DNA of 64,000 bases. Origin: Candidatus Latescibacterota bacterium (GTDB lineage Bacteria > Latescibacterota > UBA2968 > GCA-2709665). The stretch covers positions 512,001-576,000 of the forward strand of contig CBDCOX010000002.1 of NCBI GenBank assembly GCA_965219995.1. Direction: 5' to 3'. Shown here piece by piece: positions 39,500 to 46,053 of the stretch; within the stretch, counting starts at the first letter, position 1, and each line of letters opens with the position of its first letter. A model generated the notes under the pieces. That model was not told the DNA's origin, ran no database searches, and was given only the letters and a program-made list of their open reading frames with translations. The position numbers and the translations under genes were made by a program.

Positions 39500-39637
39500 G
39501 TACCGGACGTTTCCCACACGGTTACCGTGCCGGAAGCGGATCGCCGGACGGCGGCGGGTTTCCGGCACGTGACGCTGGCGGTCAGCAGGGCGTTGCCATA
39601 CGGCCCGCCGGCCGCTTTTTGGTACGGAGATTTTTGT

Positions 39638-41200
39638 ATGCGTATGCTTGTCGTTCTTCTGTTTCTGTTATCGACCGTGATCGCCTGCGTTGAAGAACGC
39701 CCCCGGACCCTCGTATTCGGAAGGGGCGGTGATACCGTGGGTCTGGATCCCGCGCTCGAGACCGACGGCGAATCATTCAAGGTATGCGACAACATATACG
39801 ATAACCTCGTCACCTTCCGGCCGGGGAATACCGAACTTGCGCCGGGTCTCGCGGAAGCGTGGACGGTTTCGGAAGACCTCAAGACGTGGACGTTTCGACT
39901 CAGGAAGAACGTGCGGTTCCACGACGGTACCCCGTTCAACGCTGACGCGGTGGTTTTTTCGCTCGCCCGACAGTACAGACCCGACCATCCGTTTCATCGT
40001 GTGGAAGGCGCATATCAGTATTGGAACAGCATGTCGATGAGCGACATTGTCAGTGACGTAAAGAGGGTGGACGACCACACGGTCGCCATTGAGCTGACCC
40101 GTCCGAATGCGCCGTTTCTGTCGAATCTCGCGATGAATTTCTGTGGCATCGTAAGTCCCTCCGCTGTACGGAAACACGGCGTAGACTTTCCCCGGCACCC
40201 CGTGGGTACGGGTCCGTTCCGGTTCGTTCAATGGATAAAGGACGACCGCGTGGTGCTGGAGCGATTTCCCGACTACTGGGGCGACGCGCCGCAGATCGAC
40301 CGGTTGATTTTCAGAAGCATTCCGGAGAATTCCGTGCGACTGATTGCCCTCATCCAGGGTTCGATCGACGGAATGGATCACCTCGTGCCCGATTTTATCC
40401 CGAATATCGAAGGACATCCGGAGCTTCGGCTTCTGACCCAGCCGGGAATGAACGTGGGGTACCTGGCAATGAACATGGACCGAGCGCCGTTCCATCTCAT
40501 CAAGGTGCGGCGTGCGGTGAATCACGCCATCAACAAGCAGGCGCTGGTGGATAATCTGTACCAGGGTCTGGCGCTTCCCGCGGTGAATCCGATTCCGCCG
40601 TCGATGTGGAGCTATCACGAAGGCATCGACGGCTACGCATACGATCCCGAACGGGCGCGGGAACTGCTGGAAGAAGCCGGCTACGCGGACGGATTCAAGA
40701 CGACGCTGTGGGCCATGCCCGTGCCGCGCCCTTATATGCCGCAGCCCAGGAAAATAGCCCAGGCCATCCAGGCCGACCTGCAGGCGGTGGGTATAGAAGC
40801 GGAAATCGTGAGTTACGAATGGGGAACCTATCTGGACAAGGTTTCGCGAGGTCAGCATGATATGGCGCTTCTGGGCTGGACGGGAGACAACGGCGACCCG
40901 GACAACTTTCTGTACGTCCTTCTGGACAAGAGCGCCACGCGGCATCCCGCCAATAACATCGCTTTCTACCGCAGCGACGAACTGCACGACGTGCTGGTGC
41001 AGGCGCAAAGGGAAGTCGACGTCGACGTCAGGACCGGGCTTTACCGGAAGGCGCAGGAGATCGTATTCCACGATGCGCCCTGGGCGCCCCTCGTGCACGC
41101 GGCCCAGACCGCCGCATTCAAGAAGACGGTGACCGGATTCACCCTGCATCCCACCGGAAGCAAGTGGTTCCAGCACGTTCGTATCGAGCAGGCGGACTGA
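39638..41200 (+). CDS. dppA: Peptide/nickel ABC transporter substrate-binding protein
   Basis: FHDGTPFNADAV, PVGTGPF, RPYMP, GWTGDNGDPDNF. Confidence 0.9.
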   Translation: MRMLVVLLFLLSTVIACVEERPRTLVFGRGGDTVGLDPALETDGESFKVCDNIYDNLVTFRPGNTELAPGLAEAWTVSEDLKTWTFRLRKNVRFHDGTPFNADAVVFSLARQYRPDHPFHRVEGAYQYWNSMSMSDIVSDVKRVDDHTVAIELTRPNAPFLSNLAMNFCGIVSPSAVRKHGVDFPRHPVGTGPFRFVQWIKDDRVVLERFPDYWGDAPQIDRLIFRSIPENSVRLIALIQGSIDGMDHLVPDFIPNIEGHPELRLLTQPGMNVGYLAMNMDRAPFHLIKVRRAVNHAINKQALVDNLYQGLALPAVNPIPPSMWSYHEGIDGYAYDPERARELLEEAGYADGFKTTLWAMPVPRPYMPQPRKIAQAIQADLQAVGIEAEIVSYEWGTYLDKVSRGQHDMALLGWTGDNGDPDNFLYVLLDKSATRHPANNIAFYRSDELHDVLVQAQREVDVDVRTGLYRKAQEIVFHDAPWAPLVHAAQTAAFKKTVTGFTLHPTGSKWFQHVRIEQAD

Positions 41201-41261
41201 AGGCGACGCCGGAAGCCGCGGAATTCGGCACGATCCTGAACACCTCGAGGCGACGCGCGCC

Positions 41262-42275
41262 ATGGGCGTCTACATCCTGAAACGGCTGCTTCTGCTGGTC
41301 CCCATGCTGCTGGGCATTGTGGCCCTGGTGTTTCTGATGATCCATTTCGTTCCAGGGGATCCGGCGCAGGTGATGCTGGGAGAACGCGCGAGCGCCGAAC
41401 AGGTGGCGGAACTGCGAAAGCAGTTGGGGCTTGACAGGGACCTGCATGTCCAGCTGGGTCTGTACCTGGCGGGATTGCTGCAGGGCGACCTGGGCCGTTC
41501 CTTCAAGTCCCATGCGAAAGTTTCCTCCGAGTTGCTGGCCAGGTTTCCCGCGACGCTCGAACTCACGTTGACGAGCATGCTGCTTGCCTGCGGCTTCGGG
41601 ATACTCGCCGGCGTGGTCTCGGCGTCACGAAAGGGGTCCGTCATGGATTATCTCAGCATGACGGCTTCCCTGGCGGGCCTCTCAATGCCGATTTTCTGGC
41701 TTGGACTGATGGTCATTCTGTTGATGTCGGTCTTTCTGGGGCTGTTTCCGGTTTCCGGACGGCTCAGTACCCACCTGTTCATTCCGGAGGTGACCGGGCT
41801 CTACATGATTGACAGCCTGCTGGCGTGGGACTGGCCGGCTTTCGGCGACGCGGCGTGGCATCTCGTGTTGCCCGGGCTTACGCTGGGCACCGTGCCAATG
41901 GCCGTCATTGCGCGGATGACGCGGTCCAGCCTTCTCGACGTGCTCAAAGAAGACTATGTGCGCACGGCGTGGGCGAAGGGACTCCCGGAACGAATCGTCA
42001 TTTTCCGGCACGCGCTCAAGAACGCGTTCATTCCTGTGCTGACCGTCATCAGCCTGCAGTTCGGATTCCTGCTCGGTGGAGCGGTCATCACGGAGACGAT
42101 TTTCGCCTGGCCGGGCGTGGGGCGCTGGCTGCTGCTCGCGGTATATTCGAGGGACTTCAGGGCCGTGCAGGGCGGGGTTCTGCTGGTTGCGCTGACCTTT
42201 GCCCTGATCAATCTCGTTGCGGACGTGATGTACGCGTGGCTGGACCCGCGGATCCGACAGCGGAGAGGAACATGA
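41262..42275 (+). CDS. dppB: Peptide ABC transporter permease
   Basis: PGDPA, FPATLEL, EDYVRTAWAKG, LDPRIR. Confidence 0.92.
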   Translation: MGVYILKRLLLLVPMLLGIVALVFLMIHFVPGDPAQVMLGERASAEQVAELRKQLGLDRDLHVQLGLYLAGLLQGDLGRSFKSHAKVSSELLARFPATLELTLTSMLLACGFGILAGVVSASRKGSVMDYLSMTASLAGLSMPIFWLGLMVILLMSVFLGLFPVSGRLSTHLFIPEVTGLYMIDSLLAWDWPAFGDAAWHLVLPGLTLGTVPMAVIARMTRSSLLDVLKEDYVRTAWAKGLPERIVIFRHALKNAFIPVLTVISLQFGFLLGGAVITETIFAWPGVGRWLLLAVYSRDFRAVQGGVLLVALTFALINLVADVMYAWLDPRIRQRRGT

Positions 42276-43174
42276 ACCGGCCATTCCATCCTGGCGCGGG
42301 ACAGGCAGTGGAAGCCGGCGTTCTCCACGTTTCTTCGGTTTCCGGCTGGCGCGGGCTGTTCTGGAAGCGGCTCCTGAAGAACCGACTCGCGGCCGCCGGC
42401 GGCGGGGTCCTGTTGGTATTCCTGCTGCTGGCCGTCGCCGCGCCGCTGGTGGCGCCGCAAGATCCCCTTGCCCAGAACCTGTACGATCGCCTCCAACCCC
42501 CGTCGCTGGCCAATCCGTTCGGCACGGATGATTTCGGCAGGGACGTGTTGAGCCGTGTTATCCACGGTGCGCGGATATCGCTTCGGGTGGGGGTTACTGC
42601 AGTTCTGATCGCACTGGTCGTGGGCGTCCCGATCGGGCTGGCCTCGGGATACTGGGGCGGCGCCCTGGATCAGGCGCTGATGCGGGCAATGGACCTGATG
42701 CTCGCGTTTCCCAGCATCCTTCTGGCCATAGCCATTGTTGCGATCCTTGGACCGGGGCTGGAAAACGCGATGCTGGCCGTCGGAATCGTGGCGGTGCCGC
42801 AGTACGCGCGGCTGGTGCGGGCGTCGGCGCTGGCCGTGCGCGGACAGGATTACGTTCAGGCCGTGAGAGCGCTTGGCGGCGGTGATTTTCGAATCCTGTT
42901 TTCCTCGGTTCTACCGAACTGCCTTACGCCCCTGATCGTTCAGTCCACGCTGGGTCTGGCGACGGCCATTCTCGATGCGGCGGGCCTGAGCTTTCTGGGA
43001 TTGGGCGCGCAGCCGCCGTTGCCGGAGTGGGGTGCGATGTTGACCGGCGGACGGGAACTGGTACTGCGTGCGCCGTGGGTCCTGACGTTTCCCGGCCTCG
43101 CCATTTTCCTGACCGTACTGGCCTTTAACCTGGTCGGAGACGGATTGCGGGATGCACTGGATCCACGGACCTGA
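42272..43174 (+). CDS. dppC: Peptide ABC transporter permease
   Basis: FGTDDFGRD, LSFLGLG, GDGLRDALDP; ATG at 42272 overlaps the upstream stop. Confidence 0.92.
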   Translation: MNRPFHPGAGQAVEAGVLHVSSVSGWRGLFWKRLLKNRLAAAGGGVLLVFLLLAVAAPLVAPQDPLAQNLYDRLQPPSLANPFGTDDFGRDVLSRVIHGARISLRVGVTAVLIALVVGVPIGLASGYWGGALDQALMRAMDLMLAFPSILLAIAIVAILGPGLENAMLAVGIVAVPQYARLVRASALAVRGQDYVQAVRALGGGDFRILFSSVLPNCLTPLIVQSTLGLATAILDAAGLSFLGLGAQPPLPEWGAMLTGGRELVLRAPWVLTFPGLAIFLTVLAFNLVGDGLRDALDPRT

Positions 43175-43192
43175 CCCGGCTGGAGAAAGCCT

Positions 43193-43221
43193 TTGACTTC
43201 CACGTTTCCGTGGCCTATATT
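43193..43221 (+). promoter_or_regulatory. sigma70 promoter of the putative ncRNA
   Basis: TTGACT(43193-43198)-N17-TATATT(43216-43221). Confidence 0.7.
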
Positions 43222-43227
43222 TTCGCT

Positions 43228-43485
43228 TACACGGAAAGGAGGTGGTCAAATGAGCGATATGACCAGTGGAGGTGGCTGTAGTTAGGTGCGCTGCCGGGTG
43301 CGGGAGAACATCTCGTCTGGTAACGCGCCTGGCGAATCTAAGCAGTCATCGAAAGACAGGCGATCCGTCATACCGACGGGCCCCGGCGATACGTGTGGGG
43401 GCGCCGTGAGATGGAAGCCGTCTCGAGCAATGCGCCGTGGTGAGATGTGGCCGGAACGCCGGCTCCCGATCGCGGCGCATTTTTT
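43228..43485 (+). ncRNA. Putative unassigned structured RNA with an extended SD and an 11-codon ORF (43250-43285)
   Basis: Own promoter; GAAAGGAGGTGGTC at 43234-43247; nested helices 43286-43480 closed by a T run; separate rplM promoter follows. Confidence 0.6.
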
Positions 43486-43504
43486 GATGAATAAGTGTTT
43501 GTGC

Positions 43505-43533
43505 TTGACAGAAATTAACGTGTTTTATATCTT
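43505..43533 (+). promoter_or_regulatory. rplM-rpsI promoter
   Basis: TTGACA-N17-TATCTT. Confidence 0.7.
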
Positions 43534-43615
43534 TTGAGGCTTGACATTGTGTGCAAATGCCGTTGAGAGGAGGTGAATTCGAAATTGGCGTGCACGTGGA
43601 CGCCATTCGGATTTT

Positions 43616-44050
43616 ATGAATACGCCGAGCGCAAAAAAGTCAGACGTCGAACGCAGATGGTTTCTCGCTGATGCCGAAGGCAAGGTGCTGGGTCGCTTCG
43701 CGAGCGAGGTGGCACGGATTCTGATGGGCAAACACAAACCGTTTTATACGCCGCACGTGGATACCGGCGATCATGTGATCGTGGTAAACACCGGCAAGCT
43801 CGTTGTCAAAGGCGCCAACAAACCCGATCAAAAGGTCTATACGAGCTTCAGTGGTTATCCGGGCGGCCTGAAAACAAAGACACTCAAGCGGGCGCTCGAG
43901 ACCCAGCCTGTGTTCGTGCTGGAGCATGCCATCCGGGGGATGTTGCCTCGTACAAAGCTGGGGCGCAGGATGATCAAAAAAGTCCGGATCTACGCGGGGC
44001 CCGATCATCCGCATCAGAGTCAGGTGCCCGAAGCGATCGACCTGATTTGA
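43616..44050 (+). CDS. rplM: 50S ribosomal protein L13
   Basis: LGR.AS..A..L.GKHKP.YTPHVDTGD, GYPGGLK, GMLP, HPH. Confidence 0.98.
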   Translation: MNTPSAKKSDVERRWFLADAEGKVLGRFASEVARILMGKHKPFYTPHVDTGDHVIVVNTGKLVVKGANKPDQKVYTSFSGYPGGLKTKTLKRALETQPVFVLEHAIRGMLPRTKLGRRMIKKVRIYAGPDHPHQSQVPEAIDLI

Positions 44051-44105
44051 TTTTCGCCGAATCGAAGCATCCTTCGAAATTCGTTGACCGAGAGGAGGTC
44101 GGGTC

Positions 44106-44498
44106 TTGGCAGAATTCCTTGCTTCTGCCAGAGGCCGGCGCAAGTCGGCCACGGCAAACGTGAAACTGTTTTCCGGGTCCGGAGAGATTACGATCAATGG
44201 CGCGCCGATTCTGGATTATCTGAAGCGGGAGACGCTGGTGATGATCGTGGAACAGCCGCTGGCGATTACGGAGACCGTCGGGCAGTACAATATCGCCGCC
44301 AGCACCAAGGGCGGCGGTCTCAGCGGCCAGGCCGGCGCCGTAAGGCTGGGCATCGCTCGAAGCCTGCTCGCCCTGAACGAAGACCTCAAGGGGCCGCTGC
44401 GGGAGGCGGGGCTGCTGACCCGCGACGCGCGAGAAGTGGAGCGGAAGAAGCCGGGCCGCCCCGGAGCGCGCAAGCGGTTCCAGTTTTCGAAACGCTAG
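44106..44498 (+). CDS. rpsI: 30S ribosomal protein S9
   Basis: GRRK, GGGLSGQAGA, LTRD.R..ERKK, QFSKR. Confidence 0.98.
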   Translation: MAEFLASARGRRKSATANVKLFSGSGEITINGAPILDYLKRETLVMIVEQPLAITETVGQYNIAASTKGGGLSGQAGAVRLGIARSLLALNEDLKGPLREAGLLTRDAREVERKKPGRPGARKRFQFSKR

Positions 44499-44549
44499 CC
44501 AACCATTTTATGAATGGCGTGTTGCGCAGATCCGGCAGCGCGCCTATTT

Positions 44550-44643
44550 CACATGTGTCCCGACTTCAGGCCGGGTGTCGGTTTCCGACGGGCCTGCGGA
44601 ATGACGGCCACAGAGGTTCAACCCGGAGTCGCCGGAGGATTGT
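44550..44643 (+). promoter_or_regulatory. Putative S2 (rpsB) autoregulatory leader
   Basis: CACA...GGGTG-hairpin...GAGG..AACC arrangement immediately upstream of rpsB. Confidence 0.5.
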
Positions 44644-45408
44644 ATGGCTGTCGTTGAAATGAAAGCGTTGCTCGAGGCCGGAGTCCACTTCGGGCATCAG
44701 ACTCGCCGTTGGAACCCGAAGATGAGAAAGTTCATCTTTATGGAACGCAACGGCATCTACATTGTCGATCTGCAGAAGACAATGAATCAGATCGAGGAAG
44801 CCTGCCAGATGATCAGTCAGGCCGTGGAACGGGGTGAATCCGTCCTCTTCGTGGGCACGAAGAAACAGGCGAAGGACGTCATTCTTCGGGAAGCGAAGCG
44901 TTGTGAGATGTTTCACGTCACCGAGCGCTGGCTTGGCGGGATGTTGACGAATTACCAGACCATCCGTCAGAGTATTCGGCGCCTCGAAACGCTCGACAAG
45001 ATGGGCGCCGACGGAACCTACGAGAAGTTGACCAAGAAAGAGGTGCTGCGGCTGGAACGTGAGCGGGAGAAACTGGAGAGATCCCTGAGCGGTATCCGGG
45101 ATATGGGTCGTCTGCCCGGATTGGTGTTCGTGATAGATATCAAGAAGGAGAGGATCGCCGTTCACGAAGCGAGGCGTCTCAATATTCCTGTGGTGGCCAT
45201 CGTCGACACCAACTGCAATCCGGACGACGTCGACTATCCGATTCCCGGAAACGACGACGCCATCCGATCTATCGGACTCATCACCCGGCTCGTGTCGGAT
45301 GCGGTGCTCGAGGGTCAGAAGATTCGACGGGAGGGCCCCGACAGGGTGGACGACGAACCCCAGTTGCTCGGACCGGAAATTACAGAAATTACCGAAGCCA
45401 GCGAATAA
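44644..45408 (+). CDS. rpsB: 30S ribosomal protein S2
   Basis: [37 protein letters not shown]. Confidence 0.98.
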
Positions 45409-45453
45409 CAGACGAGTCGGAAGGGAAAGGCGTAACGCCAGCGGGGAGAAACC

Positions 45454-46053
45454 ATGGCGATTTCAGCAAAGATGGTTCAGGAACTGCGCGCCAAGACCAA
45501 CGTGGGCATGATGGACTGCAAGAAGGCGCTCGTCGAGAGTGACGGGGACATGGAAGAAGCCATCGAGCTCCTGCGCACCCGCGGGGTTGCCAAGGCGGAA
45601 GACCGTTCTCACAGGGCGGCGAAGGAAGGGCTGATTGCGTCGTATATACACACCGGCAGCAAGCTGGGCGTAATGCTGGAGGTCAACAGCGAGACCGACT
45701 TCGTCGCCCGAACCGATCAGTTCCAGACCTTTGTCCGCGACCTGGCGATGCACATCGCCGCCAGCGCGCCGGCCGCCGTGAGCCGCGACGAGCTGGACGA
45801 AGCGAGCATCGAGCGCGAACGCAGAATCTTCAGACAGCAGGCGCTCGACGAGGGCAAACCCGAGCGGGTAATCGACCGGATCGTAGAGGGTCGGCTCGAA
45901 AAGTACTTCCAGGATGTCTGCCTGATGGAACAGCCCTTCGTGAAGGATCCGGACAAGACGGTCAAAGACCTGCTGATGGACCTGATCGCCCAGTGCGGCG
46001 AGAATGTCACCGTCAGACGGTTCGTGCGTTTTGTTCTCGGCGAGGAGAGTTGA
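45454..46053 (+). CDS. tsf: Elongation factor Ts (short form)
   Basis: GMMDCKKAL, EVNSETDFVA, ENVTVRRFVR. Confidence 0.97.
   Translation: MAISAKMVQELRAKTNVGMMDCKKALVESDGDMEEAIELLRTRGVAKAEDRSHRAAKEGLIASYIHTGSKLGVMLEVNSETDFVARTDQFQTFVRDLAMHIAASAPAAVSRDELDEASIERERRIFRQQALDEGKPERVIDRIVEGRLEKYFQDVCLMEQPFVKDPDKTVKDLLMDLIAQCGENVTVRRFVRFVLGEES

Follow-up and report, generated by a model that had tools for sequence, protein, structure and literature searches.

What kind of RNA lies directly upstream of the ribosomal protein genes rplM and rpsI in a Candidatus Latescibacterota genome, and why does it open with a segment complementary to the end of the 16S rRNA? The question concerns positions 43193–43485 of the window, as we call the whole 64,000-nt stretch analysed here (contig CBDCOX010000002.1, assembly GCA_965219995.1). 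The original prediction described an unassigned, stand-alone structured RNA with an 11-codon open reading frame (ORF), and proposed either a ribosome-binding or translation-sensing function or a dual-function small RNA (sRNA) encoding a micropeptide. Our analysis identified a stand-alone sRNA gene. With moderate confidence, we read its product as a divergent relative of Ms_IGR-5 (Rfam RF02471, ‘Actinobacteria sRNA’) that would work as a ribosome-engaging, translation-gated switch. The elements of the 5′ half bearing on this reading, including two Shine–Dalgarno (SD) sequences, are as follows.

43233–43247, + strand: head GGAAAGGAGGUGGUC (SD1), complementary to the 16S 3′ tail, unpaired in the minimum-free-energy (MFE) fold and with wobble-only variation in relatives.
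43250–43285, + strand: mini-ORF of 11 codons plus UAG, encoding MSDMTSGGGCS and conserved as an ORF in the family.
43268–43275, + strand: SD2, the second GGAGGUGG, inside the ORF, in a GAGGTGRCTG block conserved across phyla.
43230–43268, + strand: helix P1, CAC (43230–32) with GUG (43266–68), enclosing the head and P2.
43244–43264, + strand: helix P2, GGUC (43244–47) with GACC (43261–64), AUG 43250–52 in its loop; in the MFE fold, and paired in 100% of cells in 19 sequences of the window’s order.
43271–43350, + strand: helix P3, GGUGGCUGU (43271–79) with GCAGUCAUC (43342–50), joining SD2 to an anti-SD-like strand.
43281–43333, + strand: helix P4, GUUAGGUGC (43281–89) with GCGCCUGGC (43325–33), the stop codon UAG (43283–85) in its 5′ strand.
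43334–43341, + strand: bulge GAAUCUAA between P4 and P3, conserved in the alignments with family consensus GCGAAUYC.

The opening segment was confirmed as GAAAGGAGGTGGTC at 43234–47. The genome’s own 16S rRNA ends in ...GGATCACCTCCTTTCT, so that the head pairs with it over 14 nt, or over 15 with G43233 opposite U (G·U pairs included). At least 15 contiguous pairs with the tail (G·U allowed) occur at only three sites on both strands of the 5.4-Mb genome: the head of the RNA, a site within a coding frame, and the antisense strand of the 16S gene. Pairing of 12–14 bases is reached at 62 sites. The pairing had been called far longer than a normal SD; its length of 14–15 pairs stands, and the comparison must be softened, as the head is at the extreme of the SD lengths used by the genome and only somewhat longer than the strongest ordinary SDs. 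The other exact AAGGAGGTGGTC in the genome (contig C2, 5329472–5329487, − strand) falls within a long open frame and is not followed by an SD2; it was therefore set aside as a coincidence.

Variation in the head was followed in 48 loci found by a covariance model rather than by a sequence pattern, namely the 20 weakest published Actinomycetota matches, nine from the window’s phylum and 19 from searches of Acidobacteriota and Planctomycetota. The head is present in 47 of them; the other, L187, is probably a false match. At head positions 2–14, all 28 substitutions that keep the pairing are A↔G opposite a tail U or C→U opposite G, and pair-breaking letters occur in one locus only, which has a 1-nt insertion. 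None of the six head G positions opposite C varies otherwise. The 16S tail was identical in the three genomes where it was readable. In 30 loci of the window’s order, hardly any variation is seen in the head, the AUG, or ...GACCAGTGGAGGTGGCTGTAGTTAGGTGCGC, and across the family the 15-nt head is nearly invariant. The variation that does occur points to selection on pairing between the head and the 16S tail; the head would bind the 30S subunit.

The mini-ORF and its internal second GGAGGTGG at 43268–75 are as originally described. ORFs were counted in 139 distinct loci out of 148, after removal of duplicates and truncated loci; the loci had been chosen by a pattern that fixes the head and SD2, not the frame. 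An ORF of 9–17 codons, starting 2–13 nt past the head and stopping 3–6 nt past GAGGTGRCTG, was present in 138 of the 139 (11–12 codons in 110 loci; in two loci only if UUG is taken instead of the first AUG). When only the spacer from head to motif was shuffled (200 trials), such an ORF appeared in 35.5 ± 4.8 of the 139 loci, with a maximum of 49. The start codons are AUG (78), UUG (34), GUG (15), and CUG (11), and the stops UAG (119), UGA (10), and UAA (9). The conserved GAGGUGGCUG is translated as E-V-A in 103 loci, as G-G-C in 29 (the window’s order and one Eisenbacteria-titled locus), and as R-W-L in six (four Planctomycetota-type loci and the two loci scored with the first AUG, which read E-V-A from UUG). 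Because the same block is read in three frames across lineages, the peptide is not the conserved entity. Within the order, the peptide is kept as x-[DE]-x-T-S-G-G-[GD]-C-[SR], and third-codon positions are as invariant as the others, which fits a constraint at the RNA level; across the family, the N-terminal halves vary freely. The nucleotide motif, the openness of the frame, and the position of the stop are thus conserved, and the frame itself is not. These counts indicate that openness and the fixed stop position are selected, and the frame would presumably be translated in the organism. Given the wobble-only head and the 138 open ORFs, a ribosome-binding or translation-sensing RNA was a fair reading.

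Two spacings stand out in the window. GGAGG 43238–42 lies 7 nt from AUG 43250, and GGAGG 43268–72 lies 7 nt from the last sense codon, AGU 43280–82. The equal spacings imply that a ribosome with UAG in its A site would stand at an SD-optimal distance from SD2.

As a separate observation, 11 loci (L040, L047, L058, L095, L117, L121, L124, L143, L144, L149, and L107), mostly with Acidimicrobiia or Acidimicrobiales titles, have CTG at the start position, 3–4 nt after GGTCC, and no in-frame ATG, GTG, or TTG. CUG may serve as the start codon in these loci.

The prediction of a real structured RNA was borne out by folding and covariation. The + strand folds below its shuffles (z = −4.38; 0 of 200 as good), compared with z = −0.65 for the − strand. 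For the family alignment, near-identical rows were dropped to leave 43 of 59 short-form members, the four helices were written on, and a covariance model was built. With this model we aligned 100 loci (20 of the order’s 30 plus L032–L111), all of which score 34–114 bits. In the 100-member alignment, 88.7% of cells are paired versus 22–40% with slid partners, double changes occur in 12 of 22 pairs, and none of 500 shuffles matched the observed values. P1 joins the 5′ ACAC to the bases that immediately precede the second motif, leaving the head as the unpaired 5′ side of the P1–P2 loop; all four P1 pairs show changes on both sides in the family alignment, and in the window’s order P1 has three pairs, which are invariant in the 13 of 19 rows where the helix is in register. 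P2 is GGUCC/GGAC across the family, or GGUC/GACC in the window. In P3, the second motif GGUGGCUGY pairs with the anti-SD-like RCAGYCAYC in 97.3% of cells (100 members) and in 99.4% within the order, the closing pair alternating among CG, UG, UA, and GC. P4 is paired in 96.5% of cells in the order, and all five of its outer pairs show double changes in the family.

Some members depart from this fold. Acidimicrobiia-type members (L040, L052, L095, and L117) have GGACCACCU in their P4 region. Its complementarity to AGGUGGUCC, the 3′ half of the head, could allow an alternative fold in which SD1 is masked. Compact variants in other families of the window’s phylum (L188–L192, in genomes G086, G096, G117, G101, and G081) keep the head and a 10–12-codon ORF and have no P4; their SD2 is paired within a local hairpin, the opposite strand of which (GAUCACC or CCCACCUC) has the very letters of the 16S tail.

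A scan of the whole window with Rfam at gathering scores returned 0 matches. In a 601-nt search run in E-value mode, 43229–43394 aligned to all 184 positions of RF02471 with 30.5 bits (E = 3.6e-05), below the 45-bit gathering cut-off of that family. Further matches in the region (snoRNA, miRNA, and lncRNA models; E 1.4–6.8) were discarded as noise. RF02471 scores fall off gradually, from 176–185 bits in Mycobacterium-titled loci and 58–126 bits in other Actinomycetota loci, through 49.6 bits (Blastocatellia-titled) and 42.5 bits (Zixibacteria-titled), to 39–41 bits for relatives in the window’s order and 32.9 bits (Syntrophobacter-titled); in the scan of 20 loci, 13 match, and seven have no match at E 0.01 or better. 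Because these graded intermediates share the head and SD2 and the alignment spans the full model, the comparison indicates that the window RNA is a remote homologue of Ms_IGR-5, though under Rfam’s membership score. ‘Unassigned’ thus holds at the gathering score and gives way below it.

The window RNA and Ms_IGR-5, reportedly first described by Li et al. in RNA in 2013, share the blocks ACAC-GAAGGAGGUGGUC, GAGGUGGCUG, UAG, CUGGCGAAU, and GCAGUCAYC, and both are single-copy and stand-alone with their own terminator. Unlike the Rfam members, the window RNA adjoins rplM in a host that is not an actinobacterium, its ORF is shifted by one base relative to SD2 (the G-G-C, not the E-V-A frame), and it is extended by a 3′ domain of ~130 nt, which forms a pseudoknot with the terminator. 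P4 equals the second helix of Rfam’s Ms_IGR-5 model. Rfam pairs the head GGUGGU with GCUGCC; in an alignment fitted to our own model, the pairing of SD2 with CAGYCACC in P3 is favoured, and the published structure of Ms_IGR-5 may need revision.

In these Rfam scans, no other RNA family gave a credible match. The RNA resembles tmRNA (ssrA) as a small stable RNA with a short internal frame that would engage ribosomes; it differs in lacking a tRNA-like domain and in that the ORF has an SD and a start codon of its own. ARAGORN detected neither a tRNA nor a tmRNA gene in the window, and there was no Rfam tmRNA match.

The RNA is single-copy in its genome and, as the homologue search proposed with the original prediction revealed, is present by BLAST in 40 of 41 relatives (the window’s own genome counted), the single miss being a 92%-complete assembly. 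A pattern scan for the head core and the second motif, with one genome per prokaryotic species, gave at least 119 loci. Among the loci listed, most have Actinomycetota titles; the others are titled Terriglobales, Blastocatellia, Planctomycetota, Acidimicrobiia, Syntrophobacter, Zixibacteria, Sumerlaeota, Eisenbacteria, and Latescibacterota. Record titles are the depositors’ own, and one (Heliobacteriaceae, L045) is doubtful: its genome shares a phylum sample with a Terriglobales-titled (Acidobacteriota) genome, the title is probably wrong, and membership of Firmicutes was rejected. The gene upstream of L045 (Transglut_core2 and TPR_9) is the same as in a Blastocatellia-titled locus, as noted together with L109. 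Searches with our own model (E 0.001 or better, strict filters) gave the following counts of genomes with a match.

Window’s phylum: 57/151, own genome included.
Window’s order: 47/48.
Family f3 of the phylum: 5/64, weak matches.
Family f8: 3/5.
Actinomycetota sample: 73/151, or 67/145 without six unpublished genomes.
Acidobacteriota sample: 17/151.
Planctomycetota sample: 6/151.

The weak matches in families f3 and f4 proved to be genuine compact variants in five of the six inspected, and the genomes missed in the Actinomycetota sample include many small ones. Since the model is biased to actinobacterial forms, these figures are lower bounds, and no match does not mean absence. RF02471 itself gave nothing above its cut-off in 14 control genomes, with weak matches in Caulobacter and Thermus only and no match in Escherichia coli, Bacillus subtilis, or Corynebacterium glutamicum. 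Together, the searches suggest that the family extends well beyond Actinomycetota.

Four metatranscriptome runs of one study contain contigs 95–99% identical to the window. In three of them, a separate contig covers 43245/43261–43427/43439 with a word depth of 29–53; the flanking contigs in the same runs have depths of 2.8–4.6 on the permease side and 4.9–8.6 at rplM. The fourth run has a single contig across 43000–43439. The depths are a weak hint that the RNA is abundant. No contig from the RNA libraries covers 43440–43545, a gap that does not mark a transcript end. In run X4, contig record 11 (depth 73) matches window 43259–43291, the end of the mini-ORF, and then continues as P4 sequence of the type found in family f2, which points to a related organism’s homologue in the same metatranscriptome.

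For the family, three reports describe Ms_IGR-5 as an RNA-seq-validated sRNA in S. lividans (PMC8079986), as an sRNA transcription unit in S. avermitilis (PMC8780764), and with ribosome-protected reads in M. abscessus and M. smegmatis (PMC4974804). Our full-text literature search found no account of the mechanism or function of the Ms_IGR-5 family; searching by ncRv names returned only the unrelated ncRv0810c, and PMC5521070, on peptide-coding sRNAs, does not mention the family. Tethering through a 16S 3′ extension, in the portion available of a further report, concerns precursor tails of E. coli and not this RNA (10.1101/2025.09.11.675593).

In the switch reading that we favour, transcription would start a few bases ahead of the single-stranded head, which would form about 14–15 bp with the 16S tail, and the start codon would be displayed in the P2 loop. 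The 11-codon frame would then cross the 3′ strand of P1 and SD2, which in the free RNA would be locked in P3 against the anti-SD-like CAGYCAYC, and would terminate at UAG in the first strand of P4. A ribosome reading the frame would have to melt P1, P2, P3, and the lowest part of P4. Once the stop codon occupied the A site, SD2 would be 7 nt from the P-site codon, the same distance as from SD1 to AUG, and during termination the 16S tail could pair anew, this time with SD2. The RNA would thus toggle between two forms, one closed and untranslated, the other open and bound by a ribosome; the open form would free the anti-SD-like strand and the 3′ domain. Ribosome occupancy might set the stability of the RNA and/or expose a trans-acting strand, and the RNA might report or buffer free initiation capacity; as an output we would consider ribosome-dependent stability like that of the STAB-SD element discussed below, exposure of the CACC strand or the 3′ domain, or buffering of free 30S subunits. 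The data show the family relationship, the helices, the conservation of the ORF, the wobble-only variation of the head, and the independence from rplM; 30S binding, translation in the organism, the hand-over to SD2, and the cellular output are inferred.

Several points weigh against this reading. The 30S binding, the translation, and any phenotype are predictions from sequence, nothing in the data singles out a target or an output, and the switch does not account for the ~130-nt order-specific 3′ domain. A↔G changes, which are among the wobble-compatible substitutions of the head, are the commonest mutations anyway. Related sequences are not independent, so the ORF count overstates its significance; the same holds for the shuffle control on covariation, where in addition the alignment was fitted to the model’s structure. 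The score of the window RNA is under the Rfam cut-off. Contig depth measures expression poorly, and DNA can occur in RNA libraries. Finally, an SD duplex of 15 bp might impede translation instead of aiding it.

A more tentative possibility, to which we would assign a minor share of probability, is a ribosome-docking RNA common to several phyla. Such an RNA would pair with the entire single-stranded 16S tail, have about 11 codons read, and hand the tail to the normally masked SD2, which lies exactly one SD spacing ahead of the last codon; in this way it would sense, buffer, or park free 30S subunits. The P-site codons at start and stop are 30 nt apart, about one ribosome footprint, and so the RNA could accommodate two neighbouring ribosomes, one initiating and one terminating.

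By analogy with a known element, the RNA might instead be a base-pairing sRNA acting through its 3′ region, with the head and mini-ORF as a 5′ stabiliser at which a ribosome shields the transcript from 5′-end-dependent RNases; we consider this unlikely. The STAB-SD of Bacillus thuringiensis cry3A is likewise an SD-like sequence near a 5′ end and complementary to the 16S 3′ end; it binds 30S through that end, blocks RNase J1, and so recruits 30S for a purpose other than a long protein, and it sits in an mRNA leader and directs no initiation (PMC4113751). The window RNA, unlike STAB-SD, stands alone, masks a second SD, and has a conserved mini-ORF; that ORF and the start codon 7 nt downstream argue, at the level of sequence features, for initiation and against non-translation of the STAB-SD type. 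We take the STAB-SD sequence to be close to the first nine bases of the head. A stabiliser would fit with the head lying no more than about 6 nt from the inferred 5′ end in several phyla and with the variation of the 3′ domains between lineages. However, it is the 5′ domain with SD2, P3, and the fixed stop that is most conserved, not the 3′ regions. In a plain stabiliser, a masked second SD and a fixed stop position would be superfluous, and a base-pairing sRNA of this kind has no known target.

Rather less probable is a binder of the 30S subunit or the 16S tail that acts untranslated, as a sponge for free subunits or a protector of the tail in starvation, with the ORF merely tolerated. The 14–15-nt complementarity and the wobble-only variation would suit such a role, as would the scarcity of genomic sites that pair as well (only two outside rRNA). 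Yet the ORFs, open in 138 of 139 loci over three frames and 9–17 codons and ending at the same place, argue that reading is selected, and a single gene per genome could titrate ribosomes only if it were very highly expressed.

Beyond the conserved 5′ half, the RNA carries features that we analysed in 19 full-length sequences of the window’s order.

43301–43314, + strand: order-specific apical strands of P4, CGGGAG (43301–06) and ACAUCUC (43308–14), in long-range pairing with 43463–68 and 43442–48.
43365–43424, + strand: order-specific hairpins CCGUC/GACGG, GCCCC/GGGGC, and GAGAUGG/CCGUCUC.
43430–43485, + strand: intrinsic terminator, stem 43430–41/43469–80 around hairpin 43451–54/43459–62, followed by a T run.

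The long-range helix CGGGAG/CUCCCG is paired in 87.4% of cells, two of its pairs showing double changes; ACAUCUC/GAGAUGU reaches 96.7% and is largely invariant. Both cross P4 and P3, forming a pseudoknot between the P4 loop and the interior of the terminator hairpin. The three local hairpins are paired in 78.9%, 70.8%, and 76.9% of cells, with one, four, and one pairs doubly changed, respectively, and together with GCCGG/CCGGC make four local hairpins of the original prediction that hold up. The terminator stem, also a hairpin of the MFE fold, is paired in 91.2% of cells and doubly changed in 6 of 12 pairs; a simple terminator scan did not pick up 43430–43485. The eight nested stems first proposed all have their sequences as written, and most are supported. 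We rejected the outer stem 43286–94/43472–80, which shows no double changes and uses bases of P4 and the terminator, and the CGCCTG/CAGGCG hairpin, which is paired in only 64.6% of cells; P4, P3, and the terminator, which take up the same bases, are better supported than these two stems.

Signals and genes around the RNA are arranged as follows.

43193–43221, + strand: sigma-70-type promoter of the RNA, TTGACT (43193–98), 17-nt spacer, and TATATT (43216–21), with 10/12 consensus matches.
43228–43485, + strand: predicted transcript of about 258 nt, its start inferred from the −10 box and the onset of conservation.
43505–43533, + strand: separate rplM–rpsI promoter, outside the RNA, from a promoter scan and conservation across the order.
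43616–44050: rplM (Ribosomal_L13 match).
44106–44498: rpsI (Ribosomal_S9 match).
39527–46053: gene order SBP_bac_5, two BPD_transp_1 permeases (dpp/opp-type), RNA, rplM, rpsI, rpsB, and tsf.

Both predicted promoters were found where first proposed, and a consensus scan of 43000–43800 gave exactly these two sigma-70-like sites, at 43193 and 43505, against a shuffle mean of 0.6. The two hexamers of the RNA promoter are kept in all 30 loci of the order, and the rplM promoter is separately conserved; TTGAC-N17-like boxes also occur upstream of Acidobacteriota homologues. The order-wide alignment of the RNA spans from TACAC to the T run, and the Rfam alignment begins at 43229. The spacer of the RNA promoter (43200–43213) is filled by a palindrome, CCACGTTTCCGTGG, flagged by the terminator scan and retained in the closest relatives only; its half TTTCCGTG is also complementary to CACGGAAA at the RNA 5′ end. 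An 83-codon frame at 43286–43537, in frame after UAG, was rejected as a gene: it has no Pfam match, and in relatives it is disrupted by indels whose lengths are not multiples of three.

Downstream of the RNA, the products are L13, S9, S2, and EF-Ts. In family f1, the RNA lies between the dpp/opp-type permease gene and rplM; genus g6 (family f2) keeps rplM adjacency and has lost the permease, and genera g8 and g9 keep the permease and have lost rplM. Elsewhere, rplM is near the RNA in one of 75 pattern loci with at least 2.5 kb of sequence, among the listed matches, and that locus (L087, titled Candidatus Latescibacterota) resembles the window’s order, to which rplM adjacency is confined. A Pfam scan of 100 flanking ORFs from 26 of 72 full-length loci revealed no neighbour family shared across lineages: neighbours are unrelated and often on the opposite strand, and synteny is local only, for example with a class IV aminotransferase in loci titled Mycobacterium and DAHP synthase in those titled Planctomycetota. 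At L028 (genome G038, genus g9), a Mutator-family transposase gene lies just downstream, at about 774–2024, and the 3′ part of the RNA is replaced; since this RNA departs from its relatives right after the stop codon, it was probably truncated by transposase insertion. With promoter and terminator conserved, neighbours unrelated across lineages, and a single copy per genome, the RNA is an independent sRNA gene and not an rplM leader, in agreement with the original prediction of a stand-alone RNA.

It is accordingly very improbable that the RNA is a cis-acting leader or attenuator of rplM–rpsI in which translation of the mini-ORF controls terminator read-through. The RNA is directly upstream of rplM in family f1 and genus g6, and its P4 loop, paired with the interior of the terminator hairpin, could modulate termination; against this, a conserved separate promoter lies between terminator and rplM, and rplM does not adjoin the RNA in two genera of the order (g8 and g9) or in 74 of the 75 loci of other groups, where downstream genes are unrelated. 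The ribosomal-protein L13 leader, presumably Rfam RF00555, is likewise upstream of rplM; the window RNA differs in its own terminator, the separate rplM promoter, and an adjacency limited to part of one order, and neither this nor any other leader family is among the five matches listed for the region at E up to 10. In ermC-type attenuators, a short ORF with its own SD is followed by a second SD in a hairpin that is opened by a ribosome on the short ORF, and the regulated gene is in the same transcript. In the window RNA, by contrast, SD2 lies inside the mini-ORF and serves no downstream gene, a terminator and the separate rplM promoter follow, the peptide is not conserved, and sensing codons or a drug link are not evident. 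Equally doubtful is a micropeptide gene or dual-function sRNA with an active 11-residue product, the half of the original prediction that finds no support: a strong SD with a start codon and conservation of the sequence within the order speak for it, and the three frames, the freely varying N-terminal halves, and the invariant third-codon positions against it.

Ms_IGR-5 has so far stood in Rfam only as an actinobacterial sRNA, and our results suggest that the family is much wider. They also suggest that conservation in the family is strongest at the letters pairing with the 16S tail, and that a family RNA must be read by the ribosome, whatever the peptide. The lack of a match in the E. coli, B. 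subtilis, and C. glutamicum controls may explain why the family has been overlooked; it is present in Streptomyces and M. smegmatis. If the ribosome-docking alternative were true, it would define a class of ribosome-associated regulatory RNA not yet described, with a role, for example, in entry into or exit from dormancy. An orphan sRNA thereby gains a testable hypothesis, that of an RNA switch coupled to ribosome availability.

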